Shown in pieces: positions 1-7,330 of a DNA stretch of 7,330 bases (position 1 is its first letter; each line of letters opens with the position of its first letter). The notes beneath the pieces were generated by a model. The model saw only the letters and a program-made list of their open reading frames with translations, made no database searches and was not told the origin of the DNA. The position numbers and the translations under genes are program-made. Source of the stretch: a virus (taxonomy: Duplodnaviria; Heunggongvirae; Uroviricota; Caudoviricetes); IMG/VR virus record IMGVR_UViG_2537561605_000012. The stretch is one strand, 5' to 3'.

Positions 1-208
1 GAGATGGATATCCCGGGTTCACAGGAGGCAGCAACGAGCTGCTGTTTAAATTCGGGAGGATAATTAGGGCAGCCTTTTCGCCTGCCGGGAGTCACATTTT
101 TCTGCATATCTGATACTTTGGTTCCCACTACTTATTTGGTGGACACCACTTTGTCTAATTCGTCAGATTCTGACCAGACGGTTCAGGCTGTACGCTTACG
201 GAGATCTG

Positions 209-457
209 GTGCAGGTGGGCGATGTTTTTGCGGTGGCGCTGACCGATATTCCACAGGGTGAAACAGGCGACGGCATGACCGAAGGTGTGTTTATGCTGCC
301 TAAGCTGAAAACGGATGACATGAAAACGGGTAAGAAGGTTTATCTGAAGTCAGGAAAAGTTCAGCTGACTAACAGCGGCTCTGATCCGCTGGTCGGGGTT
401 GTCTGGGCAGATGCCGGAACCAGTGCAGAAGAAGTGCCGGTAAAACTCAATGTCTGA
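209..457 (+). CDS. Small head-module protein of unknown function (82 aa), sitting where lambda has FI, immediately upstream of the FII-like gene. It does not resemble lambda FI.
   Basis: Frame is open from 68 to 457, but the first plausible start is GTG at 209, preceded by GGAG (200-203) with a 5-nt spacer. The in-frame peptide upstream of 209 is W/L/F/C-rich and not protein-like. The stop overlaps the next gene's start (ATG 450 / TGA 455-457). Function is not assignable from sequence alone. Confidence 0.5.
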   Translation: MQVGDVFAVALTDIPQGETGDGMTEGVFMLPKLKTDDMKTGKKVYLKSGKVQLTNSGSDPLVGVVWADAGTSAEEVPVKLNV

Positions 458-725
458 TCCCTTTTCCCGGCTGGCAGCGCGTATGGATGCTATCACGGTC
501 AGAAAGATGGGAAAGACAGCCTCGATTAATGATGTCGATATGACTGTGATCCCGGGAGAAACACTGGCAGAGCTGAATGCTCTGTCCGGACCTGCGGTCT
601 CTCTGGTGGTGTTTTCTTCGGGATACCGCCCACGGCGCGGGGATCGCGTTGTTTATGACGGACAACAATGGACGGTCACACGGCATGAACGCTTTAACGG
701 TAAGCCAATGATCTTTATTGAGTAA
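450..725 (+). CDS. FII: Head-tail joining / tail attachment protein, lambda gpFII-like (91 aa)
   Basis: The N-terminus (MSDPFSRLAARMDAITVRKMGKTASI) and the RRGD...W.V.R block resemble lambda FII as I recall it. It sits immediately upstream of the Z homologue, as in lambda. Its start overlaps the upstream stop by 8 nt. Confidence 0.75.
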   Translation: MSDPFSRLAARMDAITVRKMGKTASINDVDMTVIPGETLAELNALSGPAVSLVVFSSGYRPRRGDRVVYDGQQWTVTRHERFNGKPMIFIE

Positions 726-736
726 AGAGGTGTGGG

Positions 737-1315
737 ATGAAGGGGCTTGAGAATGCCATCCGCAATCTGAACAGCCTTGATACCCGTATGGTGCCACAGG
801 CCAGCGCATGGGCGATAAACCGTGTGGCACAGAAAGCGGGCTCGGTTGCCACCCGGCAGGTTGCCGGGAATACCGTTGCGGGAGATAACCAGGTGAAAGG
901 GATCCCCCTGAAACTGGTTCGTCAGCGTGTCCGGGTGTTTAAAGCCAGTCCGTCAGGAAAAATGACGGCCAGGATCCGCGTTAACCGGGGCAATCTGCCC
1001 GCCATTAAGCTGGGGACAGCCCGGGTCAGACTGGCCCAGCGTGGTGGAAAACTGCAGTACCGTGGCAGTGTGCTGAAGGTGGGTAAATATCTTTTCCGGG
1101 ATGCGTTTATTCAGCAACTGGCGAATGGTCGCTGGCATGTGATGCGGCGTATTGATGGCAAAAATCGTTACCCCATTGATGTGGTGAAAATCCCGCTGTC
1201 CGGACCGCTGACACAGGCATTTGAAGATGCCCGCGACCGCATCATTGCTGCGGAAATGCCGAAACAGCTGGGGTATGCACTGAAACAACAACTGAGGTTA
1301 TGGCTGACCCGATGA
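737..1315 (+). CDS. Z: Minor tail protein Z-like (tail completion protein), 192 aa
   Basis: ATG at 737 is preceded by AAGAGG (725-730). The translation (MKGLENAIRNLN...NGRWHVMRRIDGKNRYPIDVVKIP...LGYALKQQLR) aligns along its whole length with lambda gpZ as recalled, including the near-identical NGRWHVM.R..GKNRYPIDVVKIP block. Confidence 0.9.
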   Translation: MKGLENAIRNLNSLDTRMVPQASAWAINRVAQKAGSVATRQVAGNTVAGDNQVKGIPLKLVRQRVRVFKASPSGKMTARIRVNRGNLPAIKLGTARVRLAQRGGKLQYRGSVLKVGKYLFRDAFIQQLANGRWHVMRRIDGKNRYPIDVVKIPLSGPLTQAFEDARDRIIAAEMPKQLGYALKQQLRLWLTR

Positions 1316-1713
1316 ACCGACATACACAAATCCGCCAGGTCGTACTGGCACGCCTTCGGGAACAGTGTGGAGACAGCGCCACGTTTTTTGACGGGCTTCC
1401 GGCATTTGTTGATGCGCAGGAACTGCCTGCCGTGGCGGTGTGGCTGAGTGATGCTCAGTACACCGGAAAAATGACGGATGAAGATGACTGGCAGGCTGTT
1501 CTGCATATTGCTGTCTTCATCCGGGCACAGGCACCGGATTCAGAGCTGGATATGTGGATGGAGAGCACCATTTTCCCGGCCCTGAATGATGTATCGGCAC
1601 TTTCCGGACTCATCGACACCCTGATCCCACTCGGTTTTAACTATCAACGTGATAATGAGATGGCCACCTGGGCGATGGCGGAAATCACGTACCAGATCAC
1701 GTACACGAATTAA
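1312..1713 (+). CDS. U: Tail terminator protein U-like (minor tail protein U)
   Basis: The translation (MNRHTQIRQVVLARL...ATFFDG.PA...PAVAV.L..A.YTG...PDSELD.WMES) matches lambda gpU. ATG 1312 overlaps the Z stop (ATGA, 1312-1315), indicating translational coupling, and aligns with the lambda U N-terminus. An in-frame ATG at 1300 (GAGG 1294-1297, 2-nt spacer) is an alternative start. Confidence 0.85.
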   Translation: MNRHTQIRQVVLARLREQCGDSATFFDGLPAFVDAQELPAVAVWLSDAQYTGKMTDEDDWQAVLHIAVFIRAQAPDSELDMWMESTIFPALNDVSALSGLIDTLIPLGFNYQRDNEMATWAMAEITYQITYTN

Positions 1714-1723
1714 GGAGGTGGTA

Positions 1724-2467
1724 ATGACCACGCCAAATCCACTGGCAAAGACGAAAGGTGCGGGGACGACGTTCTGGATGTATACCGGCAACGGCGATGC
1801 GTTTGCGAACCCTTTGTCGGACACTGACTGGCTGCGTCTTGCGATGGTGAAGGATCTGCAACCTGGCGAAATGACCGCTGATGCAGAAGATGACACTTAT
1901 CTCGATGATGAAGATGCAGACTGGAAAACGACAACCCAGGGGCAGAAATCCGTTGGTGATACTTCGGCGACGCTGGCCTGGCGTCCGGGTGACAGCGGGC
2001 AGAAAAAACTGGTTCAGTTGTTCGACTCCGGTGAAGTCTGCGCGTTTCGTATCAAATATCCCAACGGCACTGTTGATGTTTTCCGCGGCTGGCTGAGCTC
2101 ACTGGGTAAAACCATTGCCTCAAAAGACGTGATGACCCGCACAGTGAAAATCAGCGGTGTGGGGCGTCCATATCTGGCAGAGGAGGGCACTGAAACTGTG
2201 GGCGTTACCGGGCTGACGGTGGCACCGGCATCCGCCAGTGTCAATGTGGGAGCAACCACCACGCTGACCTTTACAGTAAAACCTGACGGAGCCAGTGACA
2301 AAGCGATCAGTGTGCATTCGACAGATCCACAGACAGCCACTGTGACCCTGAACGGACTTGTGGCCACGGTGAAAGGCGTGAAGCAGGGCAGCGTCAGCAT
2401 TGTGGGCATGACCGCTGACGGGAATTTTGTGGCTGTGGCTGCGGTGACTGTCAGCGCTGCAGGTTAA
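1724..2467 (+). CDS. V: Major tail tube protein V-like with a C-terminal Ig-like (Big_2-type) domain, 247 aa
   Basis: AGGAGG at 1714-1719 precedes ATG 1724. The N-terminal region (KGAGTTFWMY.G.GD.FANPLSD.DW.RLA.VKDL.PGE...YLDDEDADW...GQKS.GDTS.TLAW) and the NGTVDVFRGW block match lambda gpV. The C-terminal ~85 aa (about nt 2204-2464) is T/V/A/S-rich beta sequence typical of Big_2 Ig-like domains. The ORF-track start at 1649 is an upstream extension without an RBS and runs through the U stop region. Confidence 0.92.
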   Translation: MTTPNPLAKTKGAGTTFWMYTGNGDAFANPLSDTDWLRLAMVKDLQPGEMTADAEDDTYLDDEDADWKTTTQGQKSVGDTSATLAWRPGDSGQKKLVQLFDSGEVCAFRIKYPNGTVDVFRGWLSSLGKTIASKDVMTRTVKISGVGRPYLAEEGTETVGVTGLTVAPASASVNVGATTTLTFTVKPDGASDKAISVHSTDPQTATVTLNGLVATVKGVKQGSVSIVGMTADGNFVAVAAVTVSAAG

Positions 2468-2487
2468 CAGGACGATACTCATCATTT

Positions 2488-2511
2488 GCCCCGGTTATCC
2501 GGGGCTTTTTT
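2488..2511 (+). terminator. Intrinsic (Rho-independent) terminator-like hairpin in the V-G intergenic region
   Basis: GCCCCGG (2488-2494), loop TTAT, CCGGGGC (2499-2505) form a perfect 7-bp all-GC stem, followed directly by TTTTTT (2506-2511). It lies 21 nt after the V stop and ends 17 nt before the G start. The minus-strand equivalent has no U-tract, so it is oriented for + strand transcripts. Confidence 0.55.
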
Positions 2512-2527
2512 GCAGGTGGAGAACATG

Positions 2528-2914
2528 ATGTTTCTGAAACAGGGCACGTTTAATTATGAAAAGCAGTCCGTGGTGCTCAGTGAGCTGTCCGGGCTGCAGA
2601 GAATTGAATATCTGGCGTTTGTTCAGCAGCGAACGGCAAAGTTTGATGCCGAAGAGGGAGAACTGCCGGAGGCTGAACGACAGATTGCTTTTCTGCGGAT
2701 GGGGATGGATATCAATGCCTGGCTGGTTTCCCGCTCACTGTGGAATGCGGAACAGTCTCAGGATGTTGAGACGCTTTGCGCATCCGTTATTACAACATGG
2801 TCGTATGATGCCCTGGGAGCGGGGGCGGAGATGGTTCTGTCGCTGAGCGGTATGGGAGCCATTGAGAATGCCGGGGATTTGGAGCATGAGGTGCTGACGC
2901 CGGAAAAGTCCTGA
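2528..2914 (+). CDS. G: Tail assembly chaperone G-like (tape-measure chaperone), 128 aa
   Basis: MFLKQG... begins like lambda gpG (MFLK...), and the LSELS.LQRIE.LA block is conserved. AGGTGGAG (2514-2521) gives a 6-nt spacer to ATG 2528; an in-frame ATG at 2525 is possible. The ORF-track start at 2486 lies inside the terminator hairpin and is unlikely. Stop is TGA 2912-2914. Confidence 0.85.
   Translation: MFLKQGTFNYEKQSVVLSELSGLQRIEYLAFVQQRTAKFDAEEGELPEAERQIAFLRMGMDINAWLVSRSLWNAEQSQDVETLCASVITTWSYDALGAGAEMVLSLSGMGAIENAGDLEHEVLTPEKS
2902..2908 (+). other. Putative programmed -1 ribosomal frameshift (slippery) site producing the G-T fusion
   Basis: The G frame (stop at 2912-2914) and the -1 frame (open from 2890 to 3252) overlap only over 2890-2911. 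The only slip-prone heptamer there is G GAA AAG (2902-2908), with the stop codon 3 nt downstream. Lambda uses G GGA AAG at the equivalent position. Shifting here gives ...LTPEK-VLTREMQFVMRLAREF... Confidence 0.5.
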
Positions 2915-3252
2915 CGCGGGAAATGCAGTTTGTCATGCGGCTTGCCCGGGAGTTCCGGCGGGCAGACTGGCGGCGGATGCTGTCGGAAATGTCGGCCACT
3001 GAGCTTGGTGAGTGGGGCGATTATTTCCGGATGCAGAGCTTCAGTGATGTGTGGATGGATGCGCAGTTTGCCTCGCTGAAGGCATTGATCGTGAGAATGG
3101 TGTCCGGTAGCAGTGATGCTGCGGTGGCTGATTTCAGCCTTTTACCGGAAGAGAACGGGATACCGGAGCGAACGGACGAAGAACTGATGCATCTTGGGGA
3201 AGGTATTTCCGGAGGTGTGCGTTATGGACCAGATAGCCAACCTGGTCATTGA
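2908..3252 (+). CDS. T: T-frame segment of tail assembly chaperone G-T, expressed as a G-T fusion by -1 frameshift (fusion spans 2528-3252, about 241 aa). Not expected to be translated independently.
   Basis: An ORF in the -1 frame relative to G starts inside the 3' end of G. There is no convincing RBS for the internal ATG at 2923. The G/GT arrangement immediately upstream of the tape measure gene is the conserved architecture of long-tailed phages. Stop is TGA 3250-3252. Confidence 0.7.
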   Translation, partial: VLTREMQFVMRLAREFRRADWRRMLSEMSATELGEWGDYFRMQSFSDVWMDAQFASLKALIVRMVSGSSDAAVADFSLLPEENGIPERTDEELMHLGEGISGGVRYGPDSQPGH

Positions 3253-6200
3253 TTTGGGGATTGATGCGGCAGAGTTTAAAAATGAAATTCCCCGTATCAA
3301 AAACCTTCTGAATGGTGCAGCCAGCGATGCAGAACGGTCTTCTGCCCGTATGCAGCGTTTTATGGAGCGTCAGACTCAGGCCGCCCGGCAGACAATGCAG
3401 GCGGCTTCTTCGGCTGCAACAGCCGCATCCGTCCATGCGCAGACGGTGGAGAAGAGCGCACAGGCTCATGAACGCATGGCCCGCGAGGTGGAGCAAACCC
3501 GCCAGCGTATGGAGGCACTGAGCCAGAAAATGCGCGAGGAACAGGCGCAGGCCATGGCTCTGGCGGAGGCTCAGGATAAAGCGGCTGCTGCGTTTTATCG
3601 TCAGATTGACAGTGTGAAACAGGCCGGTGCGGGGCTGCAGGAATTACAGCGTATTCAGCAACAGATCCGACAGGCCAGAAACAGTGGCGGGATTGGTCAG
3701 CAGGATTATCTGGCGCTGATTTCTGAGGTTACGGCGAAAACCCGTGTTCTTACACAGGCTGAGGAAGAGGCTACCCGACAGAAAGTGGCGTTTATCCGTC
3801 AGCTTAAAGAGCAGGCAACCCGCCAGAATCTTTCTTCTTCTGAGTTGCTTCGTGCTAAGGCTGCCCAGCTGGGGGTAAGCAGTGCTGCAGAAGTGTATAT
3901 CCGCAAAATGGAGCAGGCAGGAAAAGCCACGCATTCGCTGGGTCTGAAAAGTGCAGCAGCCCGTCAGGAGATAGGCGTTCTGATAGGTGAACTGGCCCGC
4001 GGCAATTTAGGTGCGCTGAGGGGATCCGGAATAACGCTGGCTAACCGTGCCGGGTGGATAGACACACTGATGTCACCGAAAGGCATGATGCCAGGAGCGG
4101 TTATTGGCGGTATTGCCGCGGCTGTCTATGGTCTGGGTAAAGCCTGGTATGACGGTCAGAAGGAGGGGGAAGAATTTAACCGCCAGCTGTCGCTGACGGG
4201 GCATTATGCCGGAGTCACTGCCGGGCAGCTGTGGACGCTCAGTCGTGCTATTTCCGGGAATGGTATCACGCAACATGCTGCAGCCGGTGCGCTGGCTCAG
4301 GTGGTGGGGAGTGGTGCATTTCGTGGAAACGATATCGGTATGGTGGCGAGAGCTGCCGCACAGATGGAGCGATCGGTTGGCCAGTCGGTCAGCGATACCA
4401 TAAATCAGTTTAAGCGGCTGAAGGATGATCCTGTAAATGCCGCGAAGGCTCTGGACAATGAGCTGCATTTTCTTACTGCCACTCAGCTTGAGCAGATACG
4501 CGTCCTTGGGGAGCAGGGGCGGTCCAGTGATGCTGCACGGATAGCCATGTCTGCACTGGCAGAGGAAACCGGTCGGCGTACTGCGGATATTGATAATAAC
4601 CTCAATGCGCTTGGCAGTACGCTGAAGTATCTGTCTGATTTGTGGAGTCGTTTCTGGGATGCGGCCATGAATATTGGTCGTGAAGACTCGCTGGATGAAC
4701 AGATTGCCGCTTTACAGGAGAAAGTGTCGCGGGCGAAAAGACTCCCCTGGACGGCATCATCTTCTCAGGTTGAATACGATCAGCAGCGTCTTAACGATCT
4801 TCAGGAGAAAAAACGCCAGAAGGATTTGCAGGATGCAAAAGAGCAGGCAGAGCGGAATTATCAGGAGCAACAGAAACGCCGTAATGCTGAAAATGCTGCA
4901 CTGAACCGGATGAATGAAACGGAAGCAGCACGACATCAGCGTGAAATAGCGCGTATTAATGCCATGCAGTACGCCGATCAGGCTGTCAGGGATGCGGCGA
5001 TACAACGTGAAAATGAACGTTACGAGAAAGCCCTGGCATCCGGTAAGAAAAAAACACGCGAAACCCGTAATGATGAGGCCACCCGGTTATTGCTGCAGTA
5101 CAGTCAGCAACAGGCACAGGTGGAAGGACAGATTGCTGCTGCCAGACAGTCAGCAGGCATTGCCACGGAAAGGATGACAGAAGCGCGTAAACAGCTTCTG
5201 GCTCTGCAGCAGCGCATCAGCGACCTGGACGGGAAAAAACTGACGGCAGATGAAAAGAGTGTGCTGGCCCGTAAAGATGAACTGATTCAGGCACTGACGC
5301 TGCTGGATGTAAAACAGCAGGAGCTTCAGAAACAGACGGCACTCAACGAGCTGAAGAAAAAAACAATTCAGCTGACCAGTCAACTGGCTGAAGAAGAGCG
5401 CGCTCAGCGTCAGCAACATGACCTGGATATCGCCACGGTGGGTATGGGTGATCAGCAGCGACAGCGATATCAGGTACAACTGAGTCTTCGCCAGAAATAC
5501 CAGCAACAGCTGGAGCAGTTGAGGCGGGATAGTGAGCAGAAAGGGACATATAACACGGATGACTACAGAAAGGCCGAGCAGGCGCTGACGGAGAGCCTGA
5601 ACCGACAACTGAATGAGAATCGCCGTTACTGGCAACAGCTTGAAGTTGTACAGGGTAACTGGAAAAACGGAGTCCTGCGTGCATTTCAGGATTTTACCGT
5701 GGATGCAGATAATACGGCAGAAACAGCAGAACAGGTGTTCTCGTCAGCCTTCAGCAACATGGGAAATGGCCTGGCAACTTTTGTCACTACCGGCAAACTC
5801 AATTTCAAATCCTTCACCTCTTCTGTGCTGTCAGATATGGCGAAAATCCTGGCGCAGGCAACCATGATGAAATCGATAAAAGGGATTGGCAGTGTACTGG
5901 GATTTGATCTCAGCAGCCTTTCCCTGAATGCCAATGGGGGGATTTATCAGTCTGCTGATTTGAGTCGTTACAGTGGCACGGTGGTTAACCGTCCGACGTT
6001 TTTTGCTTTTGCAAAAGGCGCGGGTGTGATGGGGGAAGCGGGACCTGAAGCCATTCTGCCATTGCGTCGTGGTGCTGACGGTAAGCTGGGGGTTGTGGCG
6101 GATATTGGGGGTTCAGGTATGGCGATGTTTTCCCCGCAGTACAACATCGAGATCAATAACGATGGCACGAACGGGCAGATAGGTCCGGCTGCCCTGAAGG

Positions 6201-6289
6201 CGGTTTATGACCTCGGGAAAAAAGCGGCAGCGGACTTTATGCAACAGCAGGCCCGTGATGGTGGTCGGTTAAGTGGAGCATATCGGTAA
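3224..6289 (+). CDS. H: Tail tape measure protein H-like (tail length determinant), about 1021 aa
   Basis: GGAGGTG at 3211-3217 gives a 6-nt spacer to ATG 3224. The N-terminus (MDQIANLVIDLGIDAAEF) resembles lambda H (M...GDLVVDLSLDAARF). There is a long Q/R/E/A/K-rich predicted coiled-coil central region, then a hydrophobic/Gly-rich segment. The C-terminus (NNDGTNGQIGPAALKAVYD...RDGG..SG) is almost identical to the lambda H C-terminus as recalled. The ORF-track start at 3194 is a TTG extension. Confidence 0.92.
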   Translation: MDQIANLVIDLGIDAAEFKNEIPRIKNLLNGAASDAERSSARMQRFMERQTQAARQTMQAASSAATAASVHAQTVEKSAQAHERMAREVEQTRQRMEALSQKMREEQAQAMALAEAQDKAAAAFYRQIDSVKQAGAGLQELQRIQQQIRQARNSGGIGQQDYLALISEVTAKTRVLTQAEEEATRQKVAFIRQLKEQATRQNLSSSELLRAKAAQLGVSSAAEVYIRKMEQAGKATHSLGLKSAAARQEIGVLIGELARGNLGALRGSGITLANRAGWIDTLMSPKGMMPGAVIGGIAAAVYGLGKAWYDGQKEGEEFNRQLSLTGHYAGVTAGQLWTLSRAISGNGITQHAAAGALAQVVGSGAFRGNDIGMVARAAAQMERSVGQSVSDTINQFKRLKDDPVNAAKALDNELHFLTATQLEQIRVLGEQGRSSDAARIAMSALAEETGRRTADIDNNLNALGSTLKYLSDLWSRFWDAAMNIGREDSLDEQIAALQEKVSRAKRLPWTASSSQVEYDQQRLNDLQEKKRQKDLQDAKEQAERNYQEQQKRRNAENAALNRMNETEAARHQREIARINAMQYADQAVRDAAIQRENERYEKALASGKKKTRETRNDEATRLLLQYSQQQAQVEGQIAAARQSAGIATERMTEARKQLLALQQRISDLDGKKLTADEKSVLARKDELIQALTLLDVKQQELQKQTALNELKKKTIQLTSQLAEEERAQRQQHDLDIATVGMGDQQRQRYQVQLSLRQKYQQQLEQLRRDSEQKGTYNTDDYRKAEQALTESLNRQLNENRRYWQQLEVVQGNWKNGVLRAFQDFTVDADNTAETAEQVFSSAFSNMGNGLATFVTTGKLNFKSFTSSVLSDMAKILAQATMMKSIKGIGSVLGFDLSSLSLNANGGIYQSADLSRYSGTVVNRPTFFAFAKGAGVMGEAGPEAILPLRRGADGKLGVVADIGGSGMAMFSPQYNIEINNDGTNGQIGPAALKAVYDLGKKAAADFMQQQARDGGRLSGAYR

Positions 6290-6618
6290 TGGAGACGTTT
6301 CACTGGAAAGTGCGCCCGGATATGAATGTGGTATCAGAGCCGAAAGTGGTGACAGTGAAGCTGGGCGATGGTTATGAACAGCGTCGTGCGGCGGGACTGA
6401 ATAACCAGTTGTCGACTTACAGCGTGACGATACGTGTTCGTAAATGTGAACACCCATCTTTAAAAGCCTTTCTGGAACGGCACGGTGGCGTCCGTGCATT
6501 TCAGTGGACGCCACCTTATGACTGGAAACCGATCAGGGTGGTTTGTCGTAAATGGTCGGCAAGCGTGGGGGCGCTGTGGGTAACCATAACGGCAGATTTT
6601 GAACAGGTCGTGGCATAG
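6289..6618 (+). CDS. M: Minor tail protein M-like (tail tip assembly), 109 aa
   Basis: The ATG overlaps the H stop (TAATG at 6287-6291). The translation (METFHWKVRPDMNVVSEPKV...GDGY.QR...GLN..L.TYSVT......FLE.HGG...F.WTPPY.W..I.V.C.KWS......FEQVV) is colinear with lambda gpM. Confidence 0.9.
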   Translation: METFHWKVRPDMNVVSEPKVVTVKLGDGYEQRRAAGLNNQLSTYSVTIRVRKCEHPSLKAFLERHGGVRAFQWTPPYDWKPIRVVCRKWSASVGALWVTITADFEQVVA

Positions 6619-6627
6619 GAGGCTCTG

Positions 6628-7326
6628 ATGCAGGATATTCCACAGGAAACACATCATGAGACGACACGCCTCACTCAGTCAGCCCAGGCGGTGCTCTGGG
6701 AAATCGATCTGACAGAGGTCGGTGGTGAACGTTATTTTTTCTGTAATGAGCAGAACGAAAAAGGTGAGCCGGTTACCTGGCAGGGGCGGCAGTATCAGGC
6801 ATACCCCATTCAGGGGACGGGATTTGAACTGAACGGCAAGGGCAGTTCTGCCCGTCCGACACTGACGGTTTCTAACCTGCACGGCATGGTCACGGGGATG
6901 GCGGAAGACCTGCAGAGTCTGGTCGGCGGAACGGTGGTCCGGCGTAAGGTTTACGCCCGTTTTCTGGATGCGGTGAACTTCGTCAACGGAAACAGCGACG
7001 CCGATCCGGAGCAGGAGGTGATCAGCCGCTGGCGCATTGAGCAGTGCAGCGAACTGAGCGCGGTGAGTGCCTCTTTTGTACTGTCCACGCCGACGGAAAC
7101 GGACGGCGCTGTTTTTCCGGGACGTATCATGCTGGCCAACACCTGCACCTGGACCTATCGCGGCGATGAGTGCGGTTATCACGGTCCGGCGGTCGCGGAT
7201 GAATATGACCAGCCAACGTCCGATATCACGAAGGATAAATGCAGCAAATGCCTGAGCGGTTGTAAGTTCCGCAATAACGTCGGCAACTTTGGCGGCTTCC
7301 TTTCCATTAACAAACTTTCGCAGTAA
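6628..7326 (+). CDS. L: Minor tail protein L-like (tail tip protein with a Cys-rich, putative Fe-S-binding C-terminal domain), 232 aa
   Basis: AGGAGG at 6617-6622 gives a 5-nt spacer to ATG 6628. The translation is near-identical over long stretches to lambda gpL as recalled (VLWEIDLTEVGGERYFFCNEQNEKGEPVTWQGRQYQ..., GRIMLANTCTWTYRGDECGY..., DKCSKCLSGCKFRNNVGNFGGFLSINKLSQ). Cysteines fall at residues 173, 182, 205, 208 and 212. Confidence 0.93.
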   Translation: MQDIPQETHHETTRLTQSAQAVLWEIDLTEVGGERYFFCNEQNEKGEPVTWQGRQYQAYPIQGTGFELNGKGSSARPTLTVSNLHGMVTGMAEDLQSLVGGTVVRRKVYARFLDAVNFVNGNSDADPEQEVISRWRIEQCSELSAVSASFVLSTPTETDGAVFPGRIMLANTCTWTYRGDECGYHGPAVADEYDQPTSDITKDKCSKCLSGCKFRNNVGNFGGFLSINKLSQ

Positions 7327-7330
7327 ATCC

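Follow-up and report, generated by a model that had tools for sequence, protein, structure and literature searches.

Lambdoid late operons are usually described as a single long antiterminated transcript whose gene ratios are set by translation, and the Q-modified polymerase that starts from pR' ignores the terminators it meets. The locus described here raises the question what a hairpin with the appearance of an intrinsic terminator does inside such an operon, directly behind the gene for the tail tube protein, which in lambda is the tail protein of highest copy number. Two answers suggest themselves, a partial terminator and a 3' stabiliser of the V mRNA. Judged by the comparison of related sequences, a stabiliser fits the data better, and the partial terminator appears to be the less likely of the two.

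A hairpin in the spacer between V and G

The window, i.e., the whole stretch of 7,330 nucleotides that was analysed, contains by Pfam the genes for a cement protein and an FII-like protein followed by Z, U, V, G, T, H, M and L. The V-G junction is composed of the following elements.

1724..2467, + strand: V, major tail tube protein with an N-terminal tube domain and a C-terminal Ig-like Big_2 domain (Pfam)
2468..2487, + strand: 5' part of the V-G spacer, unpaired and A/U-rich, CAGGACGATACTCATCATTT (sequence, fold)
2488..2494, + strand: 5' arm of the hairpin, GCCCCGG (sequence, terminator scan, fold)
2495..2498, + strand: tetraloop of the hairpin, TTAT (sequence, fold)
2499..2505, + strand: 3' arm of the hairpin, CCGGGGC (sequence, terminator scan, fold, hairpin alignment)
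2506..2511, + strand: T6 tract, a U-tract in the RNA, which completes the anatomy of an intrinsic terminator (sequence, terminator scan)
2515..2521, + strand: Shine-Dalgarno sequence of G, GGTGGAG (sequence)
2525..2914, + strand: G, tail assembly chaperone (Phage_TAC_2; PF06894 at 2e-39)

The start of V was adopted from mEp460 and from the RefSeq annotation of orthologues. Its product matched PF16461 (Phage_TTP_12) at 6e-67 as well as PF02368 (Big_2), and the frame ends with the stop codon TAA at 2465-2467. For G, the start codon is the ATG at 2525 according to the mEp460 annotation or that at 2528 according to RefSeq. The heptamer G GAA AAG at 2902-2908, shortly upstream of the G stop codon (2912-2914), probably serves -1 frameshifting; the lambda heptamer is G GGA AAG. 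Via this site the T frame (PF06223) would be entered, which extends to 3252. The V-G spacer comprises 57 nt and is the only one exceeding 11 nt among the nine phage-gene junctions of the window. The hairpin lies within it, between the V stop and the G start, just where a first-pass annotation of this DNA had placed it. The same annotation had described a perfect 7-bp all-GC stem with a tetraloop and T6 at 2488-2511, and the sequence reads exactly so. The spacer sequence preceding the stem (2468-2487) is not conserved across lineages.

The 29-nt segment containing the hairpin folds with -16.2 kcal/mol, and this structure accounts for 98% of the ensemble. Compared to dinucleotide shuffles a z of -4.4 was obtained, none of the 200 shuffled sequences folding as well. 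A search for the hairpin pattern gave a single occurrence in the window and none in 200 shuffles. Generic terminator-like matches are frequent by chance, as the terminator scan of the window gave 12 of them versus 6.5 ± 2.7 expected; the V-G hairpin was the top-ranked match and the only one in which all seven pairs are G-C. The assertion that it forms the strongest RNA structure of the window did not hold, since four intragenic 30-nt segments of the + strand were equal or better (-18.0 to -17.2 versus -16.2 kcal/mol). These intragenic hairpins reside at 3378-3407, 839-868, 1436-1465 and 6485-6514, and all of them are devoid of a T-tract. Among the strongest folds of the window, only the V-G hairpin lies in a spacer and only this one is followed by a T-tract. 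On the reverse strand the stem is identical and a T-tract is absent, so that the signal is unidirectional. The GC stem, the loop size, the U-tract, the location on the + strand and the distance of 20 nt from the V stop codon are those of an intrinsic terminator. No part of the window matched a covariance model of Rfam 15 at E ≤ 1. A REP/BIME element was ruled out on the grounds of a single copy in the window, the lack of a REP consensus and the lack of an Rfam match.

It had been expected that this element would not be annotated. We found the orthologous site annotated in two phages, as 'rho-independent terminator' in mEp460 (JQ182728.1, 8751-8774) and as 'terminator' in Ayreon (MF807953.1, 8742-8782). 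The surrounding 1.6 kb of these phages are 97.6-98.0% identical to the window, and the stem, the T6 and the position between V and G are shared. The mEp460 stem deviates from that of the window by a single G-U wobble pair. There is no substantive difference between these elements and the one in the window, and both terminator annotations are computational predictions, for which the literature search disclosed no experimental test. The same search for hairpins downstream of major tail or capsid genes gave statements in genome annotations only and no experimental work. The hairpin is a known kind of feature that has already been annotated, and not a discovery.

Positions 199-7330 of the window match prophage Sp3 of E. 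coli O157:H7 Sakai with an identity of 99.99%. V and G correspond to ECs_0834 and ECs_0835 of this strain, and the hairpin with its T-tract to 912,522-912,545. The first 198 positions represent the end of ISEc8 (IS66 family) with tnpA on the minus strand. The element has inserted into the DUF2190 cement gene, the N-terminus of which is truncated at the junction 198/199. Exactly the same junction was found in the O157:H7 strains AC-3 and NZRM3614, while Sp3 of Sakai is free of the IS. Sp3 contains a portal pseudogene. The window copy belongs to a defective prophage, and the present activity of its hairpin may for that reason be irrelevant to the cell. When 241 nt around the hairpin were used as a query, they were present in 1,835 of 5,426 complete E. 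coli genomes, with a median of one place per genome and a maximum of six. The extra copies are consistent with extra prophages.

Conservation of the stem and variation of the T-tract

The V-G junctions of 186 loci were compared, which gave 41 distinct spacers. The diversity of these loci came from protein-homologue searches together with the encoding contigs and from viral scans; the scan of genome contigs gave eight loci. In clades whose G is not of the lambda type, with G proteins 38-100% identical to that of the window and spacers of 45-67 nt, a GC-rich hairpin of 5-13 bp was present in 35 of 35 distinct spacers. Its stem was significantly more stable than composition-matched shuffles in each of 14 representative lineages (z from -2.6 to -5.8, each p ≤ 0.027). 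Conservation in relatives with the same gene order had been set as a check on the element, and every examined relative of this G clade possesses the hairpin. Lambda and five other phages with a lambda-type G have the same gene order, spacers of only 10-21 nt and no hairpin. Lambda itself shares the order Z-U-V-G-T-H-M-L and a homologous V protein (55% identity) with the window, but differs by a V-G spacer of 15 nt lacking the hairpin.

The flanks and loops of the relatives have diverged beyond alignment, the loops ranging from 4 to 13 nt. As MAFFT misregistered several of the hairpin sequences, base pairs were counted on a manual core-anchored alignment of 26 variants. The counts, which depend on the anchoring, were 19 G-C, two A-U, three U-A and two wobble pairs for the closing pair, and four G-C, two G-U and four C-G pairs for the seventh pair. 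Compensatory changes are thus seen at two stem positions, the closing pair and the seventh pair. A core of C4 and G4 was invariant in 26 of 26 variants, in contrast to the loop, the flanks, the closing pair and the T-tract, and its invariance is not accounted for by a need for stability alone. Within the lineage of the window, changes were confined to the loop, to the innermost pairs and to the outermost base on the 3' side, and no variant had fewer than five G-C pairs. The hairpin between V and G is real and has been evolutionarily kept in a large group of prophages from E. coli and Salmonella.

Some loci of this collection showed peculiarities of their own. In L179 and L180, an insertion of 8 nt in the V-G spacer enlarges the loop from 5 to 13 nt and leaves the stem intact. 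In the Gifsy-1-like IMG/VR loci L131 and L148, the V frame ends 321 nt before G, whereby the C-terminal Big_2 domain is cut off. L153 is a recombinant locus with a crossover inside G.

The T-tract behaved differently from the stem. Requiring at least five T within the 8 nt downstream of the stem, we found it in roughly one half of the hairpin-bearing lineages. T5-T6 was present in every spacer variant of the window type (94 loci), and conservation of the T6 tract is limited to the Sp3/mEp460/cdtI lineage of E. coli; the window-type sequences are closely related, which makes the retention of the T-tract inside this lineage weak evidence. Outside of it, the threshold was reached in L157 and L166, and in L182 and L185 only if their A-U pairs were excluded from the stem. 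The T-tract is absent from Gifsy-1 (TTCTATGG; 51 loci with that exact spacer), from Citrobacter (TTTGCGGG), from Salmonella types (CCTCTTAC, ATCTACCA and others) and from the D-type stems in L153, L158/L159 and L163 (ACGGGGAG, GGGAGTGA, GCGGGATG). Of the latter, L153 and L158 represent E. coli types. At degraded U-tracts such as UUCUAUGG of Gifsy-1, some termination might still be possible. In evolutionary terms, the T-tract on which intrinsic termination depends is therefore optional, in contrast to the hairpin itself.

These data also bear on the idea that the hairpin is a scar at a module boundary, a former terminator in slow decay that serves no present function. The lambda-type phages manage without a hairpin, the T-tract is decaying in many lineages and the window copy itself is part of a defective prophage, all of which would agree with a neutral relic. 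Against it stand the presence of a hairpin in all distinct spacers of the non-lambda clades in spite of wholly diverged flanks, the compensatory changes in the stem and the significant stability in 14 of 14 tested lineages. A neutral relic is already disfavoured by these conservation data, and we consider it very unlikely.

Counterparts in other phages and the question of termination

Similar hairpins are recorded in phages that are not close relatives. The HK97 record, which is based on Juhala et al. 2000, lists 'putative terminators' behind the major head gene (5192-5213) and behind the gene of the major tail subunit (7443-7462). Like the hairpin of the window, the latter is GC-rich with a 7-bp stem and a tetraloop, and it lies in a short spacer between the tube gene and a frameshifted chaperone pair, the analogues of G and GT. 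It differs in its stem sequence (TGCCGGG-TTGT-CCCGGCA) and by the missing T-tract, and the tail proteins of HK97 are unlike those of the window. For the Bacillus phage SPP1, Rho-independent terminators have been predicted at 8775-8815 and 11,255-11,304 (PMC6316719). They reside downstream of the capsid gene 13 and at the end of the tube gene 17.1*, upstream of the chaperone gene 17.5 (PMC6316719), and thus in positions comparable to those in HK97 and in the phages studied here. The difference is the Gram-positive host and a late regulation without Q, and the SPP1 terminators are predictions as well.

In phage T7, Tphi is a leaky terminator downstream of the major capsid gene 10. Both Tphi and the V-G hairpin follow the most abundant structural gene, and at Tphi read-through supplies the downstream genes; T7, however, employs its own polymerase and no antitermination, whereas a Q-modified polymerase is expected at the V-G junction. 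For T7 and LUZ7, inefficient terminators have been reported as a device for balancing expression (PMC9163698). By the same principle, the element of the window would be a leaky intrinsic terminator, at whose U-tract some late transcripts stop despite Q, so that fewer transcripts of G, T, H and the tip genes than of V are made. The full anatomy with seven G-C pairs, tetraloop and U6 speaks for such a function, as do the T5-T6 in all window-type variants and the terminator annotations in mEp460 and Ayreon.

On the other hand, a usable U-tract is missing behind the hairpin in about half of the lineages, the HK97 counterpart has no T-tract either, and the conservation of the tract within the window type stems from close relatives. 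In addition, late transcription of lambdoid phages is controlled by antitermination (PMC7547250), and a Q-type late regulator is encoded by both Sp3 (ECs_0815) and mEp460 (mEp460_050). The mEp460 record shows five terminators in the late operon, namely after the capsid gene, after V, inside T, after J and after lom, all of which the polymerase must cross before it reaches the tail-fibre gene. Besides the one after V, this Q-antiterminated operon therefore contains four further annotated terminators with essential or fibre genes behind them. Taken together, we regard a leaky terminator as doubtful. The annotated 'rho-independent terminator' within T of mEp460 (9389-9406) corresponds to positions 3126-3143 of the window, which were absent from the results of the consensus scan.

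Termination could also matter in the lysogen only. According to this explanation, the hairpin would stop unmodified polymerase that has started at a spurious promoter or in the upstream ISEc8, and thereby keep the tail genes silent in the prophage state without any role in lytic stoichiometry. From the biology of Q, an element with terminator anatomy would be expected to be fully active only towards polymerase that has not been modified. In the same operon of mEp460, the terminators on either side of lom follow this logic, and in the window an IS element is situated 1.5 kb upstream of V. Yet the scan of the window revealed no promoter-like site inside or upstream of V, and lineages without a T-tract cannot insulate and retain the hairpin nonetheless. 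Furthermore, the position right after the tube gene, which is matched in HK97 and SPP1, points to lytic expression. Insulation as the conserved function is in our opinion unlikely.

A possible barrier at the 3' end of the V message

If several such signals lie in an operon that is antiterminated by Q and the T-tract is labile, the conserved role is most simply sought in the RNA hairpin itself. By analogy, the hairpin may constitute a barrier at the 3' end of V which allows the V segment to outlive the RNA downstream of it. We consider this reading well possible, if still somewhat short of probable. Termination would then be a lineage-specific addition, presumably exerted mainly on unmodified polymerase. 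The stem is located in the spacer downstream of a cistron that is needed in excess and has been kept independently of the U-tract, as would be expected of an intercistronic stabiliser. Two systems may serve as models. Newbury et al. are said to have demonstrated in 1987 that the intercistronic REP hairpins between malE and malF stabilise the upstream cistron in E. coli, and Belasco and co-workers reportedly described a hairpin of the Rhodobacter puf operon as an intercistronic stabiliser of the upstream cistron. In both, a stable stem-loop downstream of the cistron needed in excess blocks 3' exonucleases without the help of a U-tract. The hairpin of the window differs from that of malE-malF as it is not a REP element, and the stabilising role is assigned to it by analogy.

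On this model, Q-modified RNA polymerase would read through the hairpin site during lytic growth, as expected from the established antitermination of lambdoid phages, and the hairpin would fold in the free transcript after read-through. Once the late mRNA has been cut by an endonuclease, or a minority of transcripts has terminated at the U-tract, the hairpin would block 3'-to-5' exonucleases. The V segment should thus outlast the segments of G, T, H and the genes further downstream, and the amount of tube protein would rise over that of the chaperone, the tape measure and the tip proteins. Residual termination at the U-tract, which is conceivable in the lineage of the window only, would act in the same direction as protection of the V segment. 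In the lysogen, unmodified polymerase of spurious or IS-derived origin would perceive the same element as an ordinary terminator, as its anatomy suggests. The starting points of the model are the observed structure, position, conservation with compensatory changes and lability of the U-tract, while it is from the mal and puf analogues that we infer the direction of the protection and its effects on mRNA half-life and on protein ratios.

Lambda-type phages have the same gene order and no hairpin, and hence the stoichiometry of tube and chaperone does not require it. To judge from these genomes, the hairpin is dispensable for tail assembly in general. A more far-reaching version of the protection model can be proposed tentatively. 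The conserved unit would be the C4...G4 hairpin, acting in the tail operons of a large family of enterobacterial prophages as a termination-independent, post-transcriptional element that sets the ratio of tube to chaperone and tape measure protein on a Q-antiterminated mRNA. A nuclease or RNA-binding protein would perhaps recognise the invariant core, and the U-tract would be lineage-specific.

Protection might just as well benefit the downstream RNA, the hairpin then shielding the 5' end of G-T-H. The end of the stem was always found 13-22 nt upstream of the G start codon, just 5' of the Shine-Dalgarno sequence, and the hairpin is missing precisely in the clade with a lambda-type G. Both facts would suit an element serving G, either as a 5'-proximal hairpin that shields the processed G-T-H RNA from RNase E or as one that modulates the loading of ribosomes on G. 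What argues against an effect on ribosome loading is the accessibility of the Shine-Dalgarno sequence, which in 18 lineages was equal to or higher than in controls with shuffled 5' flanks. Sequestration of this sequence by the pyrimidine-rich 5' flanks, seen as UCCU...AGGA pairing in minimum-energy folds, was rejected on the same data. It is thus improbable that the hairpin is kept on behalf of G.

Small RNAs that depend on Hfq usually carry a hairpin with U6 as their 3' module, and the element of the window resembles it. The hairpin might accordingly be the 3' terminus of a small RNA that binds Hfq and originates from the 3' region of V, similar to StxS or HnrS of other EHEC prophages, and such RNAs are indeed encoded by EHEC prophages, also within late genes (PMC13502914, PMC4104026). 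In the list of Hfq cross-linked RNAs of Sakai, Sp3 is represented by EcOnc13 and EcOnc32 only, which reside near pR' at approximately 901.3-901.7 kb (PMC4104026). There were no candidates near 912.5 kb in this list, which covers uninduced cells only (PMC4104026). Neither HnrS (PMC13502914) nor the EcOnc RNAs (PMC4104026) is the RNA of the hairpin, as they map elsewhere. The lack of a promoter-like site inside V and the missing U-tail in many lineages also argue against a small RNA, and the 3' end of V, encoding the Big_2 domain, is the least conserved part of this gene, which is at odds with a conserved RNA body. We hold a small RNA to be extremely unlikely. Another RNA, sRNA-17 of an mEp460-like prophage, was reported from a 1-kb 'intergenic' region in 60 of 1,676 genomes (PMC7719688); it probably represents a locus different from the V-G hairpin.

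Hairpins right behind the genes for capsid and tube are a recurrent feature of unrelated siphoviruses (Sp3/mEp460, HK97 and SPP1) and have been termed 'putative terminators' since 2000. What the comparison adds is that the hairpin is conserved and the T-tract is not, which replaces the label by a testable question, that of mRNA stability in phage operons under antitermination. In practical terms the gain is modest and consists in a better annotation of prophage late operons. The natural hairpin variants with and without a U-tract provide material for studies on Q-modified polymerase and on mRNA decay.

A counterpart of the hairpin behind the capsid gene was not detected in the window, because positions 1-198 are the end of ISEc8 and not the capsid spacer. 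The spacer between the capsid-fusion gene and the DUF2190 gene, which in the window would lie beyond the IS insertion and is absent, contains two hairpins in Sakai Sp3 (L187, 15083-15168) and in mEp460 (L001, 1349-1434). The first reads GGCCC-GTAA-GGGCT and is followed by T7, the second CAGCCCC-TGAAC-GGGGCTG without a T-tract; the fold of the mEp460 spacer gave a z of -2.4. In lambda, a 7-bp hairpin with a weak T-tract, ATGGCCC-TTCG-GGGCCAT, starts 3 nt past the end of the capsid gene E (lambda 7163-7180, corresponding to 2164-2181 of L003).
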